This document shows positions 41,628 through 61,824 of a stretch of DNA of 64,000 bases, one piece after another (the first letter of the stretch is position 1; each line of letters opens with the position of its first letter). Both the position numbers and the translations under genes were made by a program. The DNA comes from Parcubacteria group bacterium GW2011_GWA1_40_21 (GTDB lineage Bacteria; Patescibacteriota; Minisyncoccia; Phycocordibacterales; GWA1-40-21). The stretch is from contig LBYO01000005.1 in the NCBI GenBank assembly GCA_000996205.1, positions 1,728-65,727 on the forward strand. The letters are read 5' to 3'. A model generated the notes under the pieces. The model was not told the DNA's origin and did not search any database. It worked only from the letters and a program-made list of their open reading frames with translations.

Positions 41628-42518
41628 ATGGCAAAGACACTCGCGGCATTCAACAAAATTAATACATTAAGGGAAAGATACTATAAAGCATCTACCGGCA
41701 AGGATGCTCTTATTAAGCTCATTAGCGAAGCGGAAGTTGCCGAACAGGTATACAACTCAAATGCTATTGAAAATAGCACGCTTACTCTCGAAGAGACCGA
41801 AAAAATACTTCTCCAAATTGACTTGGATAGGTTTATTAGCGAGCGGGAAATATTTGAAGCGAAGAATTTAGCGCGCGTAACATCGTATATAGATAAACGA
41901 GCAAAAGAACAAGAACTGAACCTTGATGTAATTTTATCACTTCATAAAATGCTTATTTCAAGTATTCGTGATGATATTGCCGGTAGATTTAGAAAGACCG
42001 GGGAATATGTGCGGGTTGGAAGTCATATTGCTCCAAAATCGGAAGAAGTAATACCGCGACTGGAGAAAATTCTTGCGGAGTATAACGCAAGCAGTCACGA
42101 AAACATTATAAAACGTATTGCTAAACTGCATCTTGCATTTGAGCACACACATCCTTTCTGTGACGGAAATGGCCGTATTGGGCGCGCACTGAATAATTAT
42201 TTACTTATACGAGATGGATATGTGCCAATAAATATAAAATTCATTGATAGAGAAAAGTATTACGACGCATTTAAGGAATTTGATGAGAAAGACAAAACTG
42301 AAATTATGGAAGAGATTGTCGCAAAGTCGCTTACAAATAGTTATCACAAAAGATTAGCGTATTTAGAAGGCAAGAAAATCATGACACTTGTCGATTATGC
42401 GAAAGAAAATAAGTTATCACATTCTAATTTGATAAATAAGGCGACACGCCAAACCATTGAAGCCTTCCTGGAAAAAAATGTTTGGAAAATTGGCATCGAC
42501 AATCACAAAGAAAAATAA
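41628..42518 (+). CDS. Fic/Doc (Fido) family protein
   Basis: canonical Fic motif HPFCDGNGRIGR. Confidence 0.9.
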   Translation: MAKTLAAFNKINTLRERYYKASTGKDALIKLISEAEVAEQVYNSNAIENSTLTLEETEKILLQIDLDRFISEREIFEAKNLARVTSYIDKRAKEQELNLDVILSLHKMLISSIRDDIAGRFRKTGEYVRVGSHIAPKSEEVIPRLEKILAEYNASSHENIIKRIAKLHLAFEHTHPFCDGNGRIGRALNNYLLIRDGYVPINIKFIDREKYYDAFKEFDEKDKTEIMEEIVAKSLTNSYHKRLAYLEGKKIMTLVDYAKENKLSHSNLINKATRQTIEAFLEKNVWKIGIDNHKEK

Positions 42519-42520
42519 TT

Positions 42521-43660
42521 ATGGCAAACAGTAATCTTACAAACGCAAAAAGAGCAAAGAATGACGAGTTTTATACTCAGTTCGGCGATATTCAAAAAGA
42601 GATTGAAGCGTATTTGGAATACAACCCCAATGTATTTCGTGGCAAGGTTGTGTATTGCAATTGCGACGATCCGTTTGAGAGTAATTTTTTTCGCTATTTT
42701 GTGCTCAATTTCAACAAACTTGGATTGAAACAGCTTATCACCACGAGCTATAAGCCCTCGCCTGTCGCCAACACGCAACTGGGATTGTTTGGCGATGATA
42801 AAACTCTCACAAAATCAAAAAGCCTGCCTGCCGGTAGGCAGGGCCGTCCTAAGGTAAACGCCAACAAATTTATTGTGAGCGATGTGCGCGACATAGACGG
42901 CGACGGCGAGTTCAACTTAAGGGATGTCGCCAAGCAGTTAAGGGCAAACAAACACAACGAATGGACGCCACTTGAAGGCGACGGCGACTTCCGTAGCGAT
43001 GAATGTATAAATTTGCTAAAACAATTCGACATCGTCGTAACAAATCCGCCGTTCAGTCTATTCCGCGAATATGTTAAGCAACTTTTTGATAATAACAAGA
43101 AGTTTGTGATTATCGGTAATATGAACGCTATTACTTATAAAGAAATATTTCCCTTGATAAAGGAAAATAAAATGTGGCTTGGTAATGGCTTTCACGCTGG
43201 CAATGCTTATTTTTCCACCCCTCTAGCTAAAGAATACGGGGAGGGAGTTTATATGCCAGAAACCGGTTTAGTAAAATTTAGAAATATTTGTTGGTTTACT
43301 AACTTAGACCATGGGCGCCGTCATCAACCATTACCGCTTATGACAATGAAAGAAAATTTGAAATACAGCAAACACAAAGAAATTAAGGGCAAAAAGTCGT
43401 ATGATAAATATGACAATTACGATGCCATAGAAGTTTCATTTACTGATGCAATTCCAAGTGATTATGATGGTGTAATGGGCGTGCCGATTAGTTTTTTGGA
43501 TAAATACAATCCTGATCAGTTTGAGATTATTGGAATGGCAGAAGATAACGGCAAGGGTTTTTCGGGTGGAATTTGGGACGGCAAAAATCCGCATTGTGTC
43601 ATAAATGGAGAGAATAAATTTAAGAGAATTTTTATTAAGCATAAGAAAGTTGGGGAATAA
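42521..43660 (+). CDS. N6-adenine DNA methyltransferase, M.EcoRI-like
   Basis: N-terminal KNDEFYTQFGDIQKEIEAYL and VVYCNCDDPFESNFFRYF recall the M.EcoRI N-terminus; catalytic FDIVVTNPPFS (NPPF). Confidence 0.6.
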   Translation: MANSNLTNAKRAKNDEFYTQFGDIQKEIEAYLEYNPNVFRGKVVYCNCDDPFESNFFRYFVLNFNKLGLKQLITTSYKPSPVANTQLGLFGDDKTLTKSKSLPAGRQGRPKVNANKFIVSDVRDIDGDGEFNLRDVAKQLRANKHNEWTPLEGDGDFRSDECINLLKQFDIVVTNPPFSLFREYVKQLFDNNKKFVIIGNMNAITYKEIFPLIKENKMWLGNGFHAGNAYFSTPLAKEYGEGVYMPETGLVKFRNICWFTNLDHGRRHQPLPLMTMKENLKYSKHKEIKGKKSYDKYDNYDAIEVSFTDAIPSDYDGVMGVPISFLDKYNPDQFEIIGMAEDNGKGFSGGIWDGKNPHCVINGENKFKRIFIKHKKVGE

Positions 43661-43670
43661 AAATGAATTT

Positions 43671-44390
43671 ATGCAAAAAGAAATTAAAAAATATATTAAA
43701 TATATTGAAAAAAACTTATTATATATAAGTTTAATAATTTTATTTATCCTACTTTTTTCATATGTATTTTCTAGTTGTTTTAGATTTGTTCTATATTTCT
43801 TAAATATTGAACCCAATTTTCTAGTTGTTTTTATTACTGCGATTACTTTAATATTTTCGGCTATAGAGAATAAAAAAGAAAGAAAATATAATTTTAATTT
43901 AAATTTAAAAAACTCAGTAGAAGAAAAAGCAGCTATTGTTATAGGAAAATTATTTATAATGATGAATGATTCTCAAAATTATTTACAGACAATAAAGGAT
44001 ATAAAAAATGCAATAGAAAAAAATAAAAAGTTTGTTGATATGAATAATGTTTTATCCTTAGATCTTCTTAAAAAAGACAGAGAACTTGTTGGATCATATA
44101 TAGTAATTTATTTTTCTCAGTATATTCAAAATGATTGGAATTTAATGGTGGATAAAATTAATAAAATTGGAACAAATTGTTCAATGGCAATGACTAATTA
44201 TAACGAAAATTATAATCTTATTAATACGGCTGGTTTTGAAAATGAAACATTGTCTAATATAGATAATACGATAAAAGAATCAGAAATTTTAAATGAAGAG
44301 ATTTATGAATTAACAGAAAAAATGAAAAATACATTATTATCTATTATTGTAGAAAATAATAATAAAATGAAAGAAAAATATATAAATTAA
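43671..44390 (+). CDS. hypothetical membrane protein encoded by an extremely AT-rich segment
   Basis: ORF 43605..44390 trimmed to its second Met; two TM helices, then a Lys/Asn/Ile-rich domain; local GC far below the window average. Confidence 0.35.
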   Translation: MQKEIKKYIKYIEKNLLYISLIILFILLFSYVFSSCFRFVLYFLNIEPNFLVVFITAITLIFSAIENKKERKYNFNLNLKNSVEEKAAIVIGKLFIMMNDSQNYLQTIKDIKNAIEKNKKFVDMNNVLSLDLLKKDRELVGSYIVIYFSQYIQNDWNLMVDKINKIGTNCSMAMTNYNENYNLINTAGFENETLSNIDNTIKESEILNEEIYELTEKMKNTLLSIIVENNNKMKEKYIN

Positions 44391-44396
44391 AATAGT

Positions 44397-45401
44397 ATGA
44401 CAAATATCAATAATTCCGGTGAGATAATTATTTATGAAGGCGCGGATGGGGCGACTAGGATTGAGGTGCGTGTTGAGGGTGAGACCGTTTGGCTTACTAT
44501 TGATCAAATATCGAAACTTTTCAATAAGAGCCGTTCTACGGTTAACGAGCATATTTTGAATATTTATGCCGAAAAAGAGCTAAATGAAGCTGAGTCTGTG
44601 AGAAAAATCGGAAATTCCGATTTTTCTACCAAACCGACCAATTTTTATAATTTGGATGTTATTATTTCCGTCGGTTATCGCGTGAAATCCATACAGGGCA
44701 CAAAGTTCCGTCAATGGGCGACTGCCAGAATCAGTGAATACCTTATTCAAGGATTCACTATGAATGATGAATTTTTGAAAAACAATGGTGGCGGCTTATA
44801 TTGGAAGAAACTCTTGTCTCGCATTCGTGATATTCGATCTAGCGAAAAGATGTTGTATCGGCAAGTTTTAGATCTCTATGCCACAAGCGCGGATTATAAT
44901 CCAAAATCTTTACATTCAATTAAGTTTTTCAAAATTGTGCAAAACAAATTGCACTATGCTGCGCATAAAGAAACGGCAGCAGAAGTTATTTACAATCGCG
45001 CTAATAGCGATAAAGAATTTATGGGTTTGACGGTTTTTGAGGGAGATTTACCTGTGTTAGAAGAAGTGAGAATTGCTAAAAATTATTTGTCCGCGCGAGA
45101 GCTAGAAAAATTAAACAGGCTTGTCTCGGCATATTTTGAGTTGGCAGAATTGCGCGCTATGGATCAGCAAATAATGCATATGGCAGATCATATTGCATCT
45201 TTAGATAAATTACTTTTTGATTACGGCGAAGGAGTTTTAACTGACGCTGGAAAAGTAACACATAAAAAAGCCATAGAAAAAGCAGAAAATGAGTATAAAA
45301 AATTTCAAGCTAAAACACTCTCTCCTGTTGAAAAATCATATTTGGAAAATATTAAGTTATTAGAGAAAAAAGTAGAGAAAAAAATAAAAGATAAAAATTA
45401 A
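44397..45401 (+). CDS. RhuM-family (virulence protein RhuM / Fic-DOC-associated) protein
   Basis: [16 protein letters not shown]...[22 protein letters not shown]...[23 protein letters not shown] matches the RhuM family. Confidence 0.8.
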
Positions 45402-45415
45402 TTAAAAATAAAATT

Positions 45416-46585
45416 ATGAAAACAATTTTAAAAACCGGCATCACTGTCAAAGATATTTGTGAAGGGTTCGTCTATAACGAACTGGAGGGCAAGGGGCTAT
45501 TTGGTTTGTCTGGCAAGCTCACCATTCAGCCGGAGTATCAGCGCAACTATATCTATGCCTCCGACGGCGGGAAAAGAGAGATGGCTGTTATTGAATCAAT
45601 ACTCAAAGGTTACCCAATAGGCTTGATCTATTTTAATAAGGTTTCTGAAAACAATCTGGAGGTCTTGGACGGGCAACAACGGATCACCAGTGTTGGACGT
45701 TTTGTGACTGACAAATTTGCTATCAAAGACGAAAACGGCATGGAGCAATATTTTGGCGGTATAGCAAAAGACAAGCAAGTCAAGATTTTGGAAACGAAAC
45801 TGCTCATTTATGAATGCGAAGGCACAGAAAGCCAGATAAAAGAGTGGTTTAGGACTATCAATATAGCTGGAGTTCCGCTCGTCCCACAGGAATTGTTAAA
45901 TGCGATCTATTCCGGACCATTTGTTACTCTAGGTAAAGAGGAGTTCAGCAACAGCCAAAATGCCAATATTCAAAAATGGAGCGCGTACATAAAGGGCAGC
46001 GCAAACCGACAGGCATTTTTTGAGAGAGCTTTAGACTGGGCGAGTAAGGGAGATATTGATGATTACATGAGTCTTCATCGCAACGACAAAAATATCAATG
46101 AGTTAAAAAATTATTTCAACAGTGTGATTGATTGGATCTCTAGTGTATTTACCGGTGTAGAAAGCGAGATGTGCGGACTTGAGTGGGGACGACTGTATGC
46201 GGAGTATCACAAGAAAGCTTATGATCCTGCTAAAGTGTCAGATGAGGTTAGTAAACTGTATGGCGATCCATATATCAAAAACCGCAAAGGTATCTTTGAA
46301 TTTATTCTAGGTGGTTCTGTTGATACAAGATTACTTGAGGTTAGATTTTTTGATGAAGCAACTAAAAAAGCGGTTTATACAACACAAACCGCTAAAGCAG
46401 AGAAAAAAGGTGAATCAAACTGTCCGCATTGTGCCATTGGACATGATGCCAACAAAGAAAAAATTTGGAGTCTAGGCGAAATGGATGCCGACCATGTAAC
46501 GGCTTGGAGCAAGGGCGGCACAACCTCGGCTAAAAATTGTGAGATGTTGTGCAAGACGCACAACCGAGCAAAAGGAAATCGGTAA
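45416..46585 (+). CDS. GmrSD-like type IV restriction enzyme (DUF262 ParB-like NTPase/nickase domain + C-terminal HNH nuclease)
   Basis: DUF262 signature DGQQR; C-terminal CPHC...DADHV...N..LC..HN HNH motif. Confidence 0.75.
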
Positions 46586-48887: not shown

Positions 48888-49063
48888 GGTCTCTATCCTT
48901 TATTAAAATGTCAAAAGATCTAAAATTTATTATTTGATGATAGGATATTTAATGCAAAATATCAATAGAGCGACCCAGATTCAAGTTCGCAGAGCAGGAA
49001 TTTCTCCCTCGCCTCTAAATTTTTTCAGTCAAAAAATTTAGGACTGGGCACAGGCTCGTAAAA

Positions 49064-49293
49064 TTTTCTGCTGAAAATTTTATACTCCGCCCTTCGAATC
49101 CTGCCCGTCCCGATGTTCATCGGGACTCTGGGCGGACAATTCCGCTTCGCTGCATTGTCCGCCCAGCAGTAATTTCTCGCCTACAGCGCGTGATTTTCTT
49201 GTTTCGCCGACTCAACATAGAAAATCCTTCGAATCCTGACGAGAGCCAAGCAGTTGGCTCTCTCTGAGCGGACAATTCCGCTTCGCTGCATTG
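49064..49293. repeat. tRNA-Lys-associated modular repeat region (two tandem units)
   Basis: two copies of gcggacaattccgcttcgctgcattgtccgcccagcag (38 bp; includes the tRNA 3' acceptor strand), two ccttcgaatcctg T-arm-like fragments, and a ttttctgctgaaaa hairpin. Confidence 0.7.
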
Positions 49294-49366
49294 TCCGCCC
49301 AGCAGGATTCGAACCTGCGACCAATCGCTTAAGAGGCGACTGCTCTACCAACTGAGCTATAGGCGG
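49294..49366 (-). tRNA. tRNA-Lys (anticodon CTT)
   Basis: manual fold of the minus strand: acceptor ccgccta/tgggcgg, D-arm gctcagttggtagagc, anticodon loop ctCTTaa, T-arm gcaggttcgaatcctgc; no encoded CCA. Confidence 0.8.
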
Positions 49367-49990: not shown

Positions 49991-50230
49991 TTAAACTTTT
50001 TTTTGAATTACCACATCTCCAGATTTTAATTTTTTGAATTGCAAGTTAAGTTTAATTTTTCCGTCTTGAGAAAGGGTGTTTCTGTTGTGTTGATGTTTAT
50101 CGAAATCCGGCTCATAAAATCCTTCAGATCCTCCTGTTTGGTCCAATAACCTTCCTACTTTTAATATTTTTTCGCAAATTAACATTTTAAGACCTCCCTT
50201 AGTAAATTTATATGGAAATGTAAAAAACAA
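49991..50230 (-). CDS. small hypothetical protein
   Basis: ORF only. Confidence 0.25.
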   Translation of the reverse strand: MFFTFPYKFTKGGLKMLICEKILKVGRLLDQTGGSEGFYEPDFDKHQHNRNTLSQDGKIKLNLQFKKLKSGDVVIQKKV

Positions 50231-50300
50231 ATTTTCTATTTAATTTATAGCATAAAATAATTTCTTTGCATATCCAAAAAATAAAAAGCAGAAAATTAGA

Positions 50301-50436
50301 TGGTGCCTGAGGTGGGAATCGGTCACAACTCTTTTACTGGAGCAAAAGGTCGCGACCCCGCCTCGCGCCGTCGCGCTCCGGCCTTCGATTCCCACTGACC
50401 AAATAAAAAACCTCATCAGAAATGAGATCTTTTATT
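50301..50436. repeat. tRNA-Leu-associated modular element (terminator, inverted T-arm copy, GC-rich core, hairpin, direct copy of the tRNA 3' 21 nt with CCA)
   Basis: read on the minus strand: ggtcagtgggaatcgaagg (inverted T-arm) + cggagcgcgacggcgcgaggcggggtcgcg + cttttgctccagtaaaag + gtgac + cgattcccacctcaggcacca. Confidence 0.75.
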
Positions 50437-50523
50437 TGGTGCCTGAGGTGGGAATCGAACCCACACGAGCTTTCGCCCATAACATTTTAAGTGTTACGTG
50501 TATACCAGTTTCACCACTCAGGC
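50437..50523 (-). tRNA. tRNA-Leu (anticodon TAA), class II with long variable arm, CCA encoded
   Basis: minus-strand fold: anticodon stem-loop taaca-cTTAAaa-tgtta, long variable arm gggcgaaagctcgtg, T-arm gggttcgattccc, terminal cacca. Confidence 0.8.
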
Positions 50524-51012
50524 TTTGTTTTTTAACATATTTCTTCCCCTATGTGTCGGTTTTAAACTATGGCAATTCGGACATAATATTCTTAAATTTT
50601 CCAATCTATTATCATGCCTATCGCCGTTTATGTGATCAAGTTCTAATGGAAGATACCCTTCTTTGTTTCTTGTGGACCAACCGCATTCTTCACAAAATTG
50701 TTTTTTTAAATTTTCACTAAATAATCTTTTTTTGAGCTTAAAACTTTGATAAGAAGAATCTTTCTTAAGAATAAACTCTAGAGGAGTAATTGGTTTGCCT
50801 ATGCCCCTCAAGCCCTTGTTCCAAGCTTTTCCTTTGAAATGAGAAATATTAAATTTATATTCTTTAATATATTTTTTAATTTGCTCATAATTTCCACCCG
50901 CCGCTACTAATCCTATCTTTTTTAAGACTTGTCTATAACTGGTTGAATCTTTAACAGCGACTTTTAATTGAGATATTTCCCACGATCTTTTCCTTCTGTT
51001 AATTTTCATCAA
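50518..51012 (-). CDS. stand-alone HNH endonuclease
   Basis: CEECGW ... LELDHINGDRHDNRLENLRILCPNCHS classic HNH/zinc-finger motif. Confidence 0.8.
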   Translation of the reverse strand: MMKINRRKRSWEISQLKVAVKDSTSYRQVLKKIGLVAAGGNYEQIKKYIKEYKFNISHFKGKAWNKGLRGIGKPITPLEFILKKDSSYQSFKLKKRLFSENLKKQFCEECGWSTRNKEGYLPLELDHINGDRHDNRLENLRILCPNCHSLKPTHRGRNMLKNKA

Positions 51013-51575: not shown

Positions 51576-53090
51576 TCACTTTTCCACAATTTTATAAGAC
51601 TCAATCTTGTCTCCCGGCGCTATCTCAATCGTCGCTTGGATCTGGCAACCAAATTCCATTCCTTCTTTAATTTCCGACACTTTCTTTTTTTGATGCTGTA
51701 ATTCTTTTATTTTGCCTCTTCCAACTTCTTGCTCTCTTCTCAGGATTTTAGCATCCTCGCCCAAGGAAATTAGTCCGGACTCAACTTTTCCTCCGACCAC
51801 ATATTTGTCTTTCGCTTTACTGAAGACGCGAATTATTTTCGCCACTCCAGATGTCTCTTCGGTCTCAAACTTCGGCGTGCTTTCGCGGGCTTTCGTTTCA
51901 ATCCATTCCGACAATTTGTAGATGACATCAAAGACTTTTATCTCCACGCCAAGCCTCTCGGCATAGCTTCGGGCTTTGGAATCAATAGCGGTATCAAATC
52001 CTAAAATTACTGTGCCTTCTTTGGCGTTCGCGGTTTTAACATCGTTCTCGGAAATGCCACCGATGCCGGAATGCACGATTTTTATTTTCACTCTGTCATT
52101 TTTTATTTTTCCTATCTCATGTTCTATAGCTTCAATTGATCCCATCGTCTCGGCTTTTAAAATAATATAGATAGAGAAAATATTTTCGTTTTCTTTATCA
52201 TTCGGGACTTTTTTCTTTGCGGGAATATTTTCTCTAAAAGTGGCGAGATGGCTTTCGGCCTCTTTTTTTGTTTCAAATGATTTGAACATTAAACCAACAG
52301 CAGGCAAGTCGCTAAAACCGACCACTTTAATCGGGCTTGAAAAACTAGCTTCCTTTATCTTCTTTCCGGTGAAATCTTCAATCAGTCTGGTGGAAGCGAT
52401 GCTTCCGCCGCTAGCGACAAACATTCCCGTCTTTAGTGTCCCGTCTTTTATTATGAGGGTGCCGGAAATCCCTTGGTGGCTGTCCAGATTAGCTTCAATG
52501 ACTACTCCCTCCGCGTTTTTATTCGTGTCGCCTTTCAGTTCTCCTATTTCGGCGACCAGAAGCATCATATCCAAAAGTTCCGATACTCCTTCGCCTGTTT
52601 TGGCGGAAATCGGAACCCATGGCACCGCGCCTCCGTATCCTTCAATATAAATTTCATTTTCCGCCAAATTTTGTTTCGTCTTTTCAACATCGGCTCCGGG
52701 CTTGTCTATTTTGTTTATCGCCACTATGTAGGGAATACCGCTGTCCTTTATGCACTTGAGAGCTTCAATGGTTTGCTTTTTAACGCCGTCTTCGGCGGAC
52801 ACGACAAGGACGGCTATATCAGCGACATCAACTCCGCGCTCTCTAATCGCGCAAAAAGCTTCATGTCCGGGCGTATCCAAAAAGGTTATTTTGTTCTCTT
52901 TGCCGGCTTTGCTTTTGTGAACAACTTCGTAGGCGGAGATTCTTTGAGTTATCCCGCCAGCCTCCTTTTCGGCGACCGTCGTCTTTCTAATGTAGTCAAG
53001 CAGGGTAGATTTTCCATGGTCAATATGCCCCATTATGCAAATAACGGGAGGACGCTCTATGATATTCGGTTGTTTATTGTCCGTTTTCAT
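51576..53090 (-). CDS. infB: translation initiation factor IF-2, short form (G domain to C-terminus, no N-terminal extension)
   Basis: RPPVICIMGHIDHGKSTLLD, DTPGHEAF, NKIDK; 504 aa. Confidence 0.9.
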   Translation of the reverse strand: MKTDNKQPNIIERPPVICIMGHIDHGKSTLLDYIRKTTVAEKEAGGITQRISAYEVVHKSKAGKENKITFLDTPGHEAFCAIRERGVDVADIAVLVVSAEDGVKKQTIEALKCIKDSGIPYIVAINKIDKPGADVEKTKQNLAENEIYIEGYGGAVPWVPISAKTGEGVSELLDMMLLVAEIGELKGDTNKNAEGVVIEANLDSHQGISGTLIIKDGTLKTGMFVASGGSIASTRLIEDFTGKKIKEASFSSPIKVVGFSDLPAVGLMFKSFETKKEAESHLATFRENIPAKKKVPNDKENENIFSIYIILKAETMGSIEAIEHEIGKIKNDRVKIKIVHSGIGGISENDVKTANAKEGTVILGFDTAIDSKARSYAERLGVEIKVFDVIYKLSEWIETKARESTPKFETEETSGVAKIIRVFSKAKDKYVVGGKVESGLISLGEDAKILRREQEVGRGKIKELQHQKKKVSEIKEGMEFGCQIQATIEIAPGDKIESYKIVEK

Positions 53091-58617: not shown

Positions 58618-61314
58618 ATGCCTCCATTTACTCAATTCACAACAAAAGCAAAAGAAGCCGTGAGAAAAGCTCACGAGCTTGCCATTGAGCGGGGACAAAA
58701 TCATGTGAACCCGCTTCATCTTCTCTCGGCGCTAATCTTACAGGAAGAAAGTATGGTGTCTTCAATATTAGACAAGCTGGAAGTGGACATCATTCTTCTC
58801 ACGGACTCTCTGCTTGAAGCGATTGAGACAAATGAAACATCAAATACGATTTCTCCTTCTTATCAGCTTTACCTTACTCCTGAATTGGCCCAGACTATTG
58901 AAGGTGCCGGCAAAGTTGCCGCATCTCTTAAAGATGATTTTATTTCAACCGAGCATCTTTTCATCGCTCTTTTTGACGCGGCTCAAACGGCCCGTGAAAT
59001 ACTTAGCCGATTTAAAATTGACAAGGCTGGCGTAATGAGAGTTCTTGAAGAGCTCAAGACTAGCAAGGTGACGGATGTTCATCTTCCCAAGAAAAACAAA
59101 TCCATATCAAGATACACCAGAAGCCTGACGAAGCTAGCCCAAGAAAACAAGCTTGACCCAGTCATCGGGCGCGATGATGAGATTTCAAGAATAATCCAAA
59201 TTCTTTCCAGAAGAACAAAAAACAATCCTATCTTAATTGGAGAGGCCGGAGTGGGCAAGACCGCGATCGTGGAAGGATTGGCGATAAGAATGGCTTTGGG
59301 CGATGTGCCGGAATCTCTCAAGGAGAAAGAGCTCGTGTCGCTTGATCTCGGTGCGCTTGTGGCTGGCACGAAATACCGAGGCGAATTTGAAGAGAGATTA
59401 AAAAACATAATCAAAGAAATTGAGCGGGCGGAGGGAAAGATTATCGTGTTCATAGACGAAATACACACAATCGTCGGCGCCGGTTCTGCCGAAGGTTCGC
59501 TTGACGCTTCCAATATGCTGAAGCCCGCTCTTTCTCGCGGAGAATTCCGATCTATCGGAGCAACGACGCTTAAAGAATATCAAAAACATATTGAAAAAGA
59601 CCCGGCGCTCACGAGAAGATTCCAGCCTGTGTATGTGAACGAGCCTTTGCTTGAAGACGCGGTGGCTATCTTGCGCGGACTAAAAGAGAAATACGAGCTG
59701 TATCACGGGGTGAGGATTACCGATGACGCTATTTTGGCCGCCGTCAACCTAAGCAGCAGATACATCACCGACAGATTCTTGCCGGACAAAGCTATAGACC
59801 TCATAGACGAATCGGCCTCGGCTCTTAAGATTTCACTGGAAAATATGCCGCCGATTCTTGAAGAGACTCGAAGAAAAGTTATGCGGCTTGAAATTGAAAG
59901 AGAAGCGCTTCGAAAGGAAATTGAAATTGGAAGCAAAAAATCGATTAAAGCCAGAATCAAAAAAATTGAGAAAGACATAGCCGATTTGAAAGAGAAAACT
60001 TCGGAAATAGAGCTTAAGTGGAAAAATGAAAAAAATATTCTTTCCGACATAAAATCAATCAAGAAACAGCTTGAATCCCTGAGAATGGATGCGGAAGGGG
60101 CGGAGGCGCGGGCGGATCTTTCTAAAGCGGCCGAGATAAGATACGGCAAAATACCCCAGCTAGAGAAAGATTTGGAAATGAAACTAAAGAGGCTGAAAAC
60201 TCTGCAAAGCACGAGAAGAATTCTTAAAGAGGAAATAACTGAAGCCGATATCGCGTCAGTCGTTTCTCGCTGGACAGGGATACCGACTGCCAGAATGTTG
60301 GAAGAAGAAGCTGAAAAGCTGAACAGAATGGAAGAAACGCTCAAAAAAAGAATAATCGGTCAAGATGAAGCGGTCAAAAAAATCGCCGATACGATAAAAA
60401 GATCTCGGGCGGGAATCGCTGATCCGAACAGGCCTATCGGCTCATTTATATTTTTGGGTCCGACTGGAGTGGGGAAGACCGAACTCACAAAAGCTCTGGC
60501 TGGATTCGTATTTGACGACGAAAAATCGCTTATTCGCGTGGATATGTCGGAATTTATGGAAAAGCATTCGGTGTCCAAGCTTATCGGCGCTCCGCCCGGA
60601 TATGTCGGACACGAAGAGGGCGGAACTTTCACCGAGATGATTCGGCACAGGCCATATTCCATTATTCTTTTTGACGAGATTGAAAAAGCTCATCCGGAGG
60701 TGTTTAATATATTGTTGCAGATTTTGGACAACGGAAGATTGACTGATGCCAAAGGAAGATTGGTGAATTTTAAAAACGCTGTGATTATTATGACTTCCAA
60801 TATTGGAGCTCAATACATAGACAAAATGGAACAAATTGGATTCAAGGATGTTTCTGTTACCGGCGACGATAATTATCTGAATGTAAAAAACAAAGTCCTC
60901 GCGAGCCTCAAGGATTATTTCAGGCCGGAATTTCTAAACCGGCTTGACGATATAATTGTCTTTGATATTTTGAGTCAGGACGCGATAAAAGAGATTGTAA
61001 AAATCCAAGTTGATATTGTTAAAGAAAGGCTATCGGCAAAAGAAATCAAAATGGAAGTTTCGCCGGAAGCGCTTTCCTATTTGGCGAAAGAAGGGTATAA
61101 TCCGCACTACGGCGCGAGACCGCTTAAGCGTCTGATTCAAAATAAGATATTAACCCAAATTGCGTCTTCTATGATATCTAAAAACCTCTCCAAGGGTGAT
61201 GCGGTATTCGTAAATTTGAAAGGAGAAGAATTTGATTTTGAAATCAAGAAAGGCAAAAAGGGAAGATTGCTTTCGGATTTGAGCAGGGTGAGTAGAAAGG
61301 AAAGCGTCGTTTAG
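58618..61314 (+). CDS. clpB: AAA+ disaggregase ClpB
   Basis: two Walker A boxes GEAGVGKT and GPTGVGKT, middle coiled-coil domain, Clp N-domain. Confidence 0.92.
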
Positions 61315-61350
61315 TTTATAAAAACTTGGTAATCGGAGTACCAAGTGTAA

Positions 61351-61434
61351 TGCGTAGGTGGCAGAGCGGTCAATTGCATCAGACTGTAAATCTGACGCCC
61401 TATGGGCTACGGGGGTTCAAATCCCTCCCTACGC
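61351..61434 (+). tRNA. tRNA-Tyr (anticodon GTA), long variable arm, no encoded CCA
   Basis: acceptor gcgtagg/cctacgc, anticodon stem-loop cagac-tGTAaa-tctg (G-U closing), variable arm cgccctatgggctac, T-arm gggggttcaaatccctcc. Confidence 0.8.
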
Positions 61435-61724
61435 ACAGCGAGTCTTCGAGTTGGGCAGGAAGAAGCGCGGGGCGCTTCTGTGAGGGATTTGAAGCCCGAT
61501 TGAGCCGAGCTTGGAGTGTCTTCACGAACAAGCGAGCCAATCGGGGTACTGAACGAGTAGCGTTCAAATCCCTCCCTACGCACTAAGAAAAAATGCCAGA
61601 TTCTTTATCTGGTATTTTTTGTTAGTCGCGGAGGGATTTGAAGGTCGGAGCGCGACGGCGCGAGACGGGGTCGCGGGATTTTTCAGCAGAAAAATACCCG
61701 TGACCAAATCCCTCCCTACGCACC
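61435..61724 (+). repeat. tRNA-Tyr-associated modular elements: two tandem units, each = inverted T-arm copy ... direct copy of tRNA-Tyr 3' end; unit 2 has the GC-rich core shared with the tRNA-Leu element
   Basis: gagggatttgaag (61491, 61631), ttcaaatccctccctacgca direct copies at 61564 and 61704 (the latter followed by cca), core cggagcgcgacggcgcgagacggggtcgcg 61645..61674, hairpin ttttcagcagaaaa. Confidence 0.75.
61587..61620 (+). terminator. rho-independent terminator inside the tRNA-Tyr element array
   Basis: gccagat tcttt atctggt followed by attttttg. Confidence 0.6.
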
Positions 61725-61824
61725 ACTTCGCTTTGTTTTCACAAAGCTACTCGGTGCAAGCACAAAATTGAGTCCCCGAAATTTCGGGCGTAAAAAAACA
61801 TTCCTGATGGAATGTTAAGTTTAA

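Follow-up and report, generated by a model that had tools for sequence, protein, structure and literature searches.

A widespread structured repeat family with unusual integration anatomy at tRNA 3' ends in Patescibacteria

Transfer RNA (tRNA) sequences are found in tRNA-derived short interspersed nuclear elements (SINEs), and retroplasmids carry tRNA-like 3' ends (with CCA). Integrative elements that target tRNA genes hold a tRNA 3' segment in attP for Campbell-type insertion. Small interspersed structured repeats, such as Correia/NEMIS, RUP, ERIC, BOX, REP/BIME and the Rickettsia palindromic elements (RPEs), have been reviewed (PMC2229807), and group I introns have been described in tRNAs of Patescibacteria, the Candidate Phyla Radiation (CPR) (PMC13011429). 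Here we analyzed 64,000 nucleotides (nt) of contig LBYO01000005.1 from Parcubacteria group bacterium GW2011_GWA1_40_21 (positions 1,728 to 65,727, forward strand; hereafter the window), in which a 136-nt unit follows a tRNA-Leu gene. This unit belongs to a previously undescribed, widespread family of structured repeats of the small interspersed/integrative kind, with an unusual tRNA-end integration anatomy. The explanation that we favour, with about even confidence, is that the unit is a non-autonomous, non-coding structured cassette, which would enter tRNA genes at their 3' end by recombination and supply them with a replacement end and a terminator.

An original prediction, made from the letters of the window alone, had described downstream of tRNA-Leu on the minus strand a probable tRNA terminator, an inverted copy of the T arm, a conserved GC core, a hairpin and a direct copy of the last 21 nt of the tRNA including CCA. 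All of these parts were found, in this order, as listed below in window coordinates.

50437..50523, minus strand: tRNA-Leu(UAA) with encoded CCA (ARAGORN; Rfam tRNA, 59.8 bits).
50437-50457, minus strand: last 21 nt of tRNA-Leu (C56 to A76), the proximal repeat copy.
50301..50436, minus strand: whole Leu unit, 136 nt, consisting of a 115-nt insert and one 21-nt repeat; absent from the related locus L154.
50398..50436, minus strand: terminator-like A/T hairpin with T-run, aataaaaGATCTCATttctgATGAGgttttttatttggt (hairpin 50401-50436), seen in the sequence and as an extended stem in the predicted read-through fold.
50384..50395, minus strand: anti-T arm (X'), GTGGGAATCGAA, exact reverse complement of TTCGATTCCCAC (tRNA positions 54-65); in the predicted folds the 5' strand of a closing helix, P1, paired with the distal copy.
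50360..50382, minus strand: P2 hairpin, with a 3-bp outer stem, an internal loop GGA/GA, a 4-bp inner stem and a GACG tetraloop.
50351-50380, minus strand: 30-nt GC core; second window occurrence at 61646-61675 with 1 mismatch, 0 expected by chance.
50321..50357, minus strand: P3, a long hairpin (GGUCGCG.. / ..UGUGACC) with a conserved G.U pair and a bulged A (covariance model R1, 81.0 bits).
50301..50321, minus strand: distal 21-nt copy, CGATTCCCACCTCAGGCACCA, C56 to A76 including CCA; identical to 50437-50457, 0 expected by chance.

In shuffles that preserved the dinucleotides, the chance expectation was approximately zero for the 21-mer, the core and the 12-mer of the anti-T arm. The latter, which complements the T-loop and the 3' strand of the T-stem, matched twice in the window as compared to 0.01 expected matches. 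The 3' half of the terminator-like hairpin (50398-50410) is also antisense to the tRNA, namely to ACCAAATAAAA, which spans the CCA end and the trailer. The tRNA-Leu 3' segment is thus present as X (50437-50457), X' (50384-50395 plus 50398-50410) and X (50301-50321), in a direct-inverted-direct order. An A/T hairpin (CTTTTGC-tcca-GTAAAAG) followed by gtgac is located between the core and the distal copy, and the final base of P3 (50321) is C56 of that copy. The internal loop of P2 consists of tandem G.A pairs and one bulge; a K-turn is not claimed since the bulge is 1 nt and not 3 nt, although the tandem G.A pairs are present. The native downstream flank directly follows the distal copy, in an order identical to that of L154. 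We interpret this copy as the original 3' terminus of tRNA-Leu, now displaced.

The A/T hairpin with its T-run is present as predicted, with a putative role in termination. The stem contains fewer than three G-C pairs and was hence not flagged by a simple terminator scan. For the equivalent hairpin at tRNA-Tyr, the scan reported the minus strand only, opposite to tRNA-Tyr and its second unit. We regard the hairpin at 50401-50436 as a plausible candidate for a tRNA terminator.

The second occurrence of the core is part of a unit downstream of tRNA-Tyr, with the following features.

61584..61725, plus strand: tRNA-Tyr unit 2, type A (R1, 93.6 bits; predicted fold).
61584-61623, plus strand: putative terminator of Tyr unit 2.
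61630-61642, plus strand: anti-T arm, GGAGGGATTTGAA.
61644-61666, plus strand: P2.
61669-61705, plus strand: P3.
61705-61725, plus strand: tRNA-Tyr end copy, CAAATCCCTCCCTACGCACCA.

The organization of the two units is the same, as had been predicted, and so is the spacing of 29 nt between the core and the copy. Their similarity extends across the whole unit and beyond the 30-nt core, with a mean column identity of 82% (consensus-based, MAFFT). Two details needed correction: the Tyr copy with CCA ends at 61725 and not at 61724, and the inventory of Leu and Tyr units had omitted two related units after tRNA-Lys (49293-49366).

Evidence for a discrete unit comes from L154, a locus from the same sample that was found by a scan for the predicted empty site and has flanks that are 81-94% identical to those of the window. 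In L154, the tRNA-Leu end ..GGCACCA is joined straight to tctaattttctgc, and exactly 136 nt are missing. Positions 561-581 of L154 align by blastn to both window 50457-50437 and window 50321-50301. Because these 21 nt match both repeats, 50301-50436 corresponds to exactly one indel unit, and the Leu unit is polymorphic, being either present or absent, with the 21-nt repeat as its boundary. At the empty site, the gene itself encodes the CCA.

Other tRNA genes of the relatives also differed in their units. At the tRNA-Lys site, L154 has a single, different type-A unit and the window has two other units. Downstream of ClpB, the tRNA-Tyr gene is identical in six relatives, but the unit arrays differ. 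Tyr unit 2 without its distal copy (61584-61704) has identities of 99.2% in L156 and 97.5% in L159, as compared to 89.7% and 84.2%, respectively, for clpB. The type-A Tyr unit is absent from L155, L157, L158 and L160, of which L155 is closer to the window by clpB (91.3%). In L156 and L159, the copy distal to the type-A unit has decayed and is followed by the native tRNA trailer, as expected if the unit entered the T-loop and the old end was pushed downstream. Where relatives lack the unit, the ancestral tRNA-Tyr end does not include CCA. The empty site in L154 and the patchy distribution of a nearly identical Tyr unit support the suggestion of a mobile module, or at least one of discrete gain and loss.

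The direct-inverted-direct order of X, X' and X is one that snap-back template switching produces, and could have been left by a local accident of replication, either a tandem-inversion duplication or a template switch at the hairpin of the terminator, with neither function nor mobility. As a full explanation, such an accident is contradicted and hardly credible, since the foreign 63-nt core is present in >100 other genomes and is under structural selection, and since whole units including the terminator recur in other genomes at 97-99% identity. Template switching may still be the source of the antisense arm.

The Leu unit and Tyr unit 2 have a common predicted fold, a three-way junction of P1, P2 and P3 with the acceptor 3' strand and ACCA as a tail. 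In P1, the anti-T arm pairs with the downstream T-arm copy over 10-11 bp, and the sequence of the helix differs between Leu and Tyr, each matching its own tRNA. The inverted T-arm copy and the 3' copy of the original prediction are both present, and can be redefined as the two strands of the helix that closes the junction. The sense strand folds better (z -4.3 for Leu and -6.0 for Tyr) than the antisense strand (-1.8 and -4.5, respectively). The single core mismatch between Leu and Tyr, G to A, is offset by a change from C to U(T) immediately upstream of the core, and is thus a compensatory base-pair change in the outer stem of P2. Three further compensatory pair differences between the two units were identified in P3.

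To examine covariation, we aligned 73 copies without gaps over 68 columns and scored the alignment on the P2/P3 structure. The fraction of paired cells was 97.2%, as compared to 80% in column shuffles and 33-50% in controls with slid partners. Changes on both sides were observed in 15 of 23 pairs overall and in 14 of the 16 pairs of P3, and the covariation score was 0.51 versus 0.18. The middle pair of the outer P2 stem (columns 7-27), for example, was CG in 55 copies, UA in 13, AU in 3 and GC in 1. A G.U pair at columns 35-63 was conserved (58/73) and further G.U pairs were seen on the tRNA-sense strand only, which makes the fold specific to this strand. The 3' boundaries were taken from hairpin-constrained extraction, since automatic detection by folding was unreliable.

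The 22-mer used for retrieval is fixed in the copies that it retrieved, and the inner stem of P2 was therefore tested on the 47 copies that were identified with R1 and lack the 22-mer. In these, the inner stem covaries from CGC/GCG to GCA/UGC, CAC/GUG, GGC/GCC, GCU/AGC and UGU/ACA, and a G-C pair is replaced by A-U, whereas the GACG loop and the CGGAG/CGAG internal loop are invariant. The conserved loops in the family are GACG, AGCA and the GGA/GA internal loop. The covariation shows that the fold, which is strand-specific, is under selection, and supports the structured module that had been proposed.

The exact 22-mer, GGNCGGAGCGCGACGGCGCGAG, was found at at least 119 genome loci. At least 115 of these are low- or mid-GC loci whose titles refer to CPR or to metagenome-assembled genomes (MAGs) of an unclassified "bacterium" or "uncultured bacterium", with the exception of L073; the other 4 of the 119 listed matches were chance matches in high-GC genomes without the remaining element. 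The CPR names include Paceibacterota/Parcubacteria groups, Saccharimonadales, Berkelbacteria, Levyibacteriota and others. L073 is labelled Ignavibacteria, but its element and 5' flank are nearly identical to those of L067 (Levyibacteriota), and it is probably a misbinned CPR contig. With the covariance model R1, we obtained 144 matches in 664 kb. Further copies thus exist in numbers, and judged from these matches the family appears to be restricted to CPR/Patescibacteria.

No match to a described RNA family was obtained. A gathering scan of the window with Rfam 15 identified four tRNAs only, and E-value scans of 50200-50560 and 61300-61800 gave nothing but chance matches far below the threshold; a known RNA family was rejected based on these three scans, in which the Leu and Tyr units also did not match known ribozyme or group I/II intron models. 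The literature searches returned nothing on the element, only group I introns in the anticodon loops of Patescibacteria tRNAs. An element of approximately 63 nt that contains a 22-nt block identical in >100 species, with several copies per genome, is thus absent from Rfam and from the literature searched. Matches to a 17-mer of the core in IMG/VR were mostly chance matches in high-GC contigs, and the remainder represented a marine-virus hairpin with no tRNA nearby. In these marine viral contigs (L002, L004, L010, L018, L019 and L023), the 17-mer GAGCGCGACGGCGCGAG is located inside GGATCAGG/CCTGGTCC and is followed by caagc-type repeats; the hairpin seems unrelated to the CPR element.

Approximately half of the copies (71 of 146) are located at most 150 nt from a tRNA gene, and 67 of these 71 are on the strand of the tRNA, 53 downstream and 14 upstream of it. 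The core adjoins tRNAs for Leu, Tyr, Lys, Val, Gly, Ala, Ser, Glu, Phe, Ile, Arg, Met and Thr, and the arms match the tRNA in each case. Other copies follow 5S ribosomal RNA (rRNA) or transfer-messenger RNA (tmRNA), lie between uvrB and uvrA or after rplK, or occupy spacers in tRNA operons. We distinguished three 5' contexts: an anti-T arm, which is the arrangement seen in the window, a conserved GGTGAG-hairpin-CGCAAGG module, and a local hairpin that abuts P2 and often includes the ACCA end of the tRNA. The inverted arms are tRNA-specific (GTGGGAATCG versus GGAGGGATTTG) and are not present in the other two classes. Some genomes carry clustered copies. In L099 (Berkelbacteria), four cores were observed within 8 kb, three of which have 21-nt repeats that end exactly at the encoded CCA. 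In L049 (1062-1593), a 5S rRNA is followed by two tandem cores (1228-1295 and 1373-1440) and then by a 107-nt tRNA match (42.6 bits), which may carry an insertion.

The direct repeat from the T-loop to the 3' end, next to an intact, reconstituted tRNA, is a classic att signature, which could represent the scar of an integrase island or prophage that once resided in tRNA-Leu, with attL and attR left after an internal deletion. But the insert is 115 nt long and contains no open reading frame (ORF), no integrase is encoded nearby and no recombinase family recurs in the 115 loci. The antisense arm has no counterpart in att sites. Furthermore, the core is found at tRNAs of at least 12 amino-acid identities with matched arms, and also at uvrA, 5S rRNA and tmRNA. 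A single integrase cannot serve all of these targets, which contradicts an att scar and renders this origin extremely unlikely.

The proteins encoded next to the element gave no indication of a mobilizer. Pfam searches of the neighbouring ORFs identified HNH, RbfA, IF-2, a weak response-regulator match and others, and no recombinase. All-against-all clustering of ORFs from the 115 loci recovered housekeeping genes only, each in at most 8 loci, so that a recurrent neighbour family was rejected. An HNH endonuclease ORF (164 amino acids; 50518-51012, minus strand) is located upstream of tRNA-Leu and its end overlaps the first bases of the tRNA. As a mobilizer it was also rejected: homologues adjoin the element only in L038 and, as a weak partial match, in L085 among the 115 loci. 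Since they are so rarely element-adjacent, and since the empty-site strain L154 carries the same HNH gene, we see no link between this gene and the element.

Direct repeats of at least 12 nt between the flanks were identified in 52 of 136 copies, as compared to 2 of 136 in a control with mismatched flanks. In 25 of the 52, the downstream repeat begins exactly at the last base of P3, which is C56 of the tRNA, and runs for 19-22 nt to or just past the tRNA end. The repeats are variable in length (12-68 nt) and consist of gene fragments rather than of a fixed-length target duplication. In the other main class, a 5' gene fragment that ends at GTGAG is followed by the element and then by an intact copy of the gene; the fragments cover tRNA positions 1-24 or 1-53, or the first approximately 13 codons of uvrA. 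In this class, the repeat begins only 4-9 nt upstream of the tRNA, suggesting that the intact tRNA is transcribed through the element and, by inference, that the core is transcribed and is not a terminator. Many copies are located within decayed pseudo-tRNAs. In L058 and L149, class-2 copies are positioned exactly between the 5' strand of the T-stem and C56/G57 of a tRNA-like sequence, the 3' part of which has decayed and is followed by an intact paralogue.

In the uvrB-uvrA spacers of L071, L097, L100 and L054, a duplicate of the first approximately 13 uvrA codons precedes the element and intact uvrA. In L097, the upstream fragment resembles the fragments of other species more than it does the intact uvrA of the same locus. 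An in-frame insertion into uvrA, as for the Rickettsia RPEs, was rejected since the upstream fragment of L097 reaches a stop within the element and intact uvrA comes after it. A retro-copy origin from the CCA end was also weakened, given that the CCA is gene-encoded at the empty Leu site, that many copies have no CCA and that the repeat at tRNA-Lys in L154 runs 7 nt past the mature tRNA end.

Strand-specific hairpins, for which G.T wobbles in single-stranded DNA would serve equally well, and a modular mosaic of short hairpin motifs as in BIMEs might indicate a single-stranded DNA element that is multi-copy, intergenic and non-coding. In this case the repeat would be of REP/BIME type or an IS200/IS605-derived PATE, with hairpins recognised by an HUH/Y1 transposase encoded elsewhere. 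However, elements of the IS200/IS605 type insert without target duplication, whereas duplications of 19-63 nt are the rule here, and neither the window nor the sampled loci showed a Y1 transposase. Moreover, the two copies in the window are on opposite strands although the GC skew has one sign across nearly the whole window, which suggests that orientation follows the tRNA and not replication. We consider an origin of this type improbable.

The predicted fold of a read-through RNA that contains tRNA-Leu and the unit is very stable (-105 kcal/mol, z -7.9). In this minimum free energy structure, the distal copy completes the acceptor and T stems and the whole unit sits in the T-loop, which would be compatible with an RNA-level role or an intron-like origin. 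The unit could then be an intervening sequence in the T-loop that is removed from the RNA, with the distal CCA copy as the real 3' exon. The position of the class-2 copies in L058 and L149 would agree with this, as would the Tyr array of the window, in which only the distal copy bears CCA. Yet an intact tRNA and a terminator-like hairpin are located upstream of the unit, and the 3' "exon" in L058 and L149 has decayed, with an intact paralogue after it. There is neither a group I/II core nor a known ribozyme match, and the unit-free relatives lack CCA at the ancestral Tyr end. On balance, a T-loop intron is very unlikely.

The window contains additional units, the features of which are as follows.

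61436..61583, plus strand: tRNA-Tyr unit 1, type B, with a hairpin, anti-T arm GTGAGGGATTTGAAG, a structured body and a T-arm/acceptor copy at 61562-61583.
48986..49292, minus strand: units K1 and K2 downstream of tRNA-Lys(CUU), with a weak R1 match (13.7 bits) at 49056-49109.

Tyr unit 1 has the architecture of unit 2 but a different body, consisting of the stem CCCGATTG..CAATCGGG and a GTACTGA hairpin with the loop motif GAGCCGAGC. Homologues of this unit were identified in L155-L160, and the body motif is nested inside type-A elements of other genomes (L041, L101 and L152). From this distribution, type B appears to be a separate module family that shares the anti-T/T-copy architecture. The Tyr copy with CCA is followed at 61726-61775 (plus strand) by a hairpin, cttcgctttgttttcacaaagc, and then by ..ggtgcaagcac and aaaattgag. 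The flank aaattgag comes after a tRNA-end copy in L155, and the region may represent a fourth, decayed tRNA-Tyr end.

K1 and K2 each contain a trailer hairpin that pairs with the acceptor 3' strand (GGCGGACAAT..ATTGTCCGCC), an anti-T arm (..CAGGATTCGAAGG) and a variable body, with partial or decayed copies of the tRNA-Lys 3' end at 49158-49169 and 48986-48998. The tRNA-Lys(CUU) gene itself (49293-49366, minus strand) has no encoded CCA, and the decayed distal copy is followed by the ancestral trailer cttgaatctg, as in L154. With R1, only the two copies at Leu and Tyr and the weak relative after tRNA-Lys were identified in the window, and tRNA-Cys has no unit.

The window genes are chromosomal, including IF-2, ClpB, RbfA and an aminotransferase, and derive from Patescibacteria/CPR in Rifle groundwater metagenomes. 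A phage origin of the window was rejected given these genes and the blastn searches against phages, which matched tRNAs only. IF-2 (51576-53090, minus strand) is just 504 amino acids long, with the GTPase domain starting at residue 16 and without the typical bacterial long N-terminal region. A defence/addiction-type cluster at 41628-46585 (plus strand) encodes Fic/DOC, an EcoRI-like adenine methyltransferase, a RhuM family protein and a GmrSD-N-HNH fusion.

How could a cassette of this anatomy have entered the tRNA genes? We suggest that it would carry, on the tRNA strand, a replacement for the last 21 nt (C56 to CCA), the terminator-like hairpin, the anti-T arm and the core of approximately 63 nt with P2 and P3. 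The cassette would enter by Campbell-type recombination inside the 21 nt that it shares with the gene, with the same outcome as an insertion at T-loop position 55/56. The tRNA would stay intact and gain its own terminator, and the original 3' end and flank would be pushed downstream as the direct copy. Repeated events would stack the units, with the newest beside the tRNA and the older distal copies decaying. The antisense arm would pair with the leftover copy to form the three-way junction, or alternatively with the T arm of the tRNA itself in a read-through RNA; one candidate source of an arm that is matched to each tRNA is snap-back template switching.

The anatomy, the family, the strand-specific selected fold, the empty and filled sites, the duplications of target fragments and the patchy distribution with mosaic arrays are observations. 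From these we infer that the direction of change was gain rather than loss and that recombination was the route; the core would be conserved through recognition by a putative trans-acting factor. Entry of a cassette explains why the tRNA is intact, why the left boundary is fixed at C56 and why the right boundary is variable, as well as the stacked arrays, the decaying distal copies and the mirror-image class of 5' fragments.

Several points weigh against this explanation. A deletion between the 21-nt repeats would also yield the empty site, so that the unit may have been lost from L154 rather than gained in the window. A homology of 19-23 nt is short for RecA recombination, and cassette entry does not account for a new antisense arm that matches each tRNA. 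P1 is imperfect in many copies of the family, with a median of 6 contiguous pairs. Transposase, integrase and reverse transcriptase genes were found neither near the element in the window nor recurrently near copies elsewhere. The element was absent from 2.9 million viral contigs (IMG/VR, searched with the 17-mer and a degenerate P2/P3 pattern), from the plasmid search and from phage genomes (blastn: tRNAs only), and no vector for its spread is visible. Finally, copies are retained at orthologous sites (uvrB-uvrA, rplK-rplA, tRNA-Gly and tRNA-Arg). This retention and the identity of the 22-nt block across CPR lineages are explained no less well by an RNA of use to the host than by selfish DNA.

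The strongest rival is accordingly a cis-acting RNA domain of the host in the precursors of stable RNAs and some mRNAs, for example a putative platform for a processing, quality-control or stabilizing factor. The anti-T arm may then hide the redundant 3' end or act as a switch between the two 3' ends available to the tRNA, and recombination at repeats would give rise to the duplications and strain differences as side effects. Such a role agrees with the extreme sequence conservation, the covariation across CPR lineages and the conserved loops, with the orientation of 67 of the 71 copies along the adjacent tRNA, and with the positions in tRNA-operon spacers and downstream of 5S rRNA and tmRNA. 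It would also account for the orthologous-site retention, the transcription through the element implied by the 5'-fragment class and the stability and specificity of the read-through fold. It fits less well with the terminator-like hairpin that separates the tRNA from the core in the Leu unit and Tyr unit 2, with the lack of a unit at tRNA-Leu in the close relative L154 and at tRNA-Cys in the window, with the interchange of type-A and type-B bodies at one site and with the many copies in decayed pseudo-tRNAs. We view a host RNA, which is compatible with mobility, as a tentative possibility.

A more speculative proposal, with a minor but substantial probability, is that P1-P2-P3 is a new CPR-specific agent at the RNA level, in one of two forms. 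The first is a structured RNA, possibly catalytic or protein-guiding, that may act on tRNA 3' ends or T-loops and may copy itself into stable-RNA genes via an RNA or single-strand intermediate, making its own tRNA-matched arms. In the second form, P1-P2-P3 may be an essential domain of CPR tRNA precursors, not seen before, with a role in processing or quality control. Either form, if true, would represent a new RNA family and a new mechanism, and not a variant of an att scar or of a miniature inverted-repeat transposable element (MITE).

The CPR comprises a large share of bacterial diversity, with tiny genomes and almost no recognised mobile DNA or regulatory RNA. The element explains tandem pseudo-3'-ends and fragments of pseudo-tRNAs, both of which hamper the annotation of tRNAs in CPR MAGs, and is a marker for strain-level recombination. 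It also poses the concrete question of how a 115-nt cassette gains tRNA-matched arms and enters the T-loop at position 55/56. A core that binds a conserved factor or has catalytic activity would constitute a new RNA class.

Compared to the described systems, the cassette resembles the non-canonical tRNA introns (archaeal bulge-helix-bulge introns and the group I introns of Patescibacteria, PMC13011429) in that the junction is located in a tRNA loop with exon complementarity and, for the group I introns, in that the host is a CPR bacterium. However, the junction is in the T-loop and not in the anticodon loop, there is no ribozyme core, and the cassette always supplies an intact tRNA copy while the interrupted copies decay. 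With the tRNA-derived SINEs and retroplasmid ends it shares a short non-coding repeat with tRNA-derived sequence and, in some copies, CCA. It differs from these since the tRNA-Leu gene encodes CCA even where the unit is missing, no linked reverse transcriptase was found and the Lys repeat in L154 extends 7 nt past the mature end. Tandem inversion duplications and quasi-palindrome template switching produce the same three direct-inverted-direct segments, here of the tRNA 3' end, with hairpins at the junctions. The cassette junction, in contrast, is an imported, covarying, RNA-like core of 63 nt present at at least 115 other loci and not local sequence, and the whole unit recurs in other genomes.

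The small interspersed repeats are, like the cassette, <200 bp, non-coding and multi-copy, with predicted stem-loop transcripts, a modular mosaic structure and filled and empty sites among strains. Small size, lack of coding capacity, multiple copies and filled and empty sites are likewise shared with MITEs of the Correia/RUP/ERIC type. The RPEs in addition occur in small symbiont-type genomes, in or beside stable-RNA genes. Unlike these repeats, the cassette has neither shared terminal inverted repeats nor a short, fixed target duplication of the TA type; its duplications are 19-63 nt pieces of neighbouring genes, its orientation is tied to tRNA genes, and conservation of the core spans a whole superphylum and not just one genus.

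Finally, the cassette has in common with the tRNA-targeting integrative elements the duplication from the T-loop to the gene end, the rebuilding of the gene from element sequence, the displaced original end downstream and the possibility of tandem stacking. It is distinguished from them by its length of 115 nt with neither integrase nor ORF, by its antisense arm and by the use of one core for many tRNAs, as well as for 5' gene fragments and the protein-coding gene uvrA.

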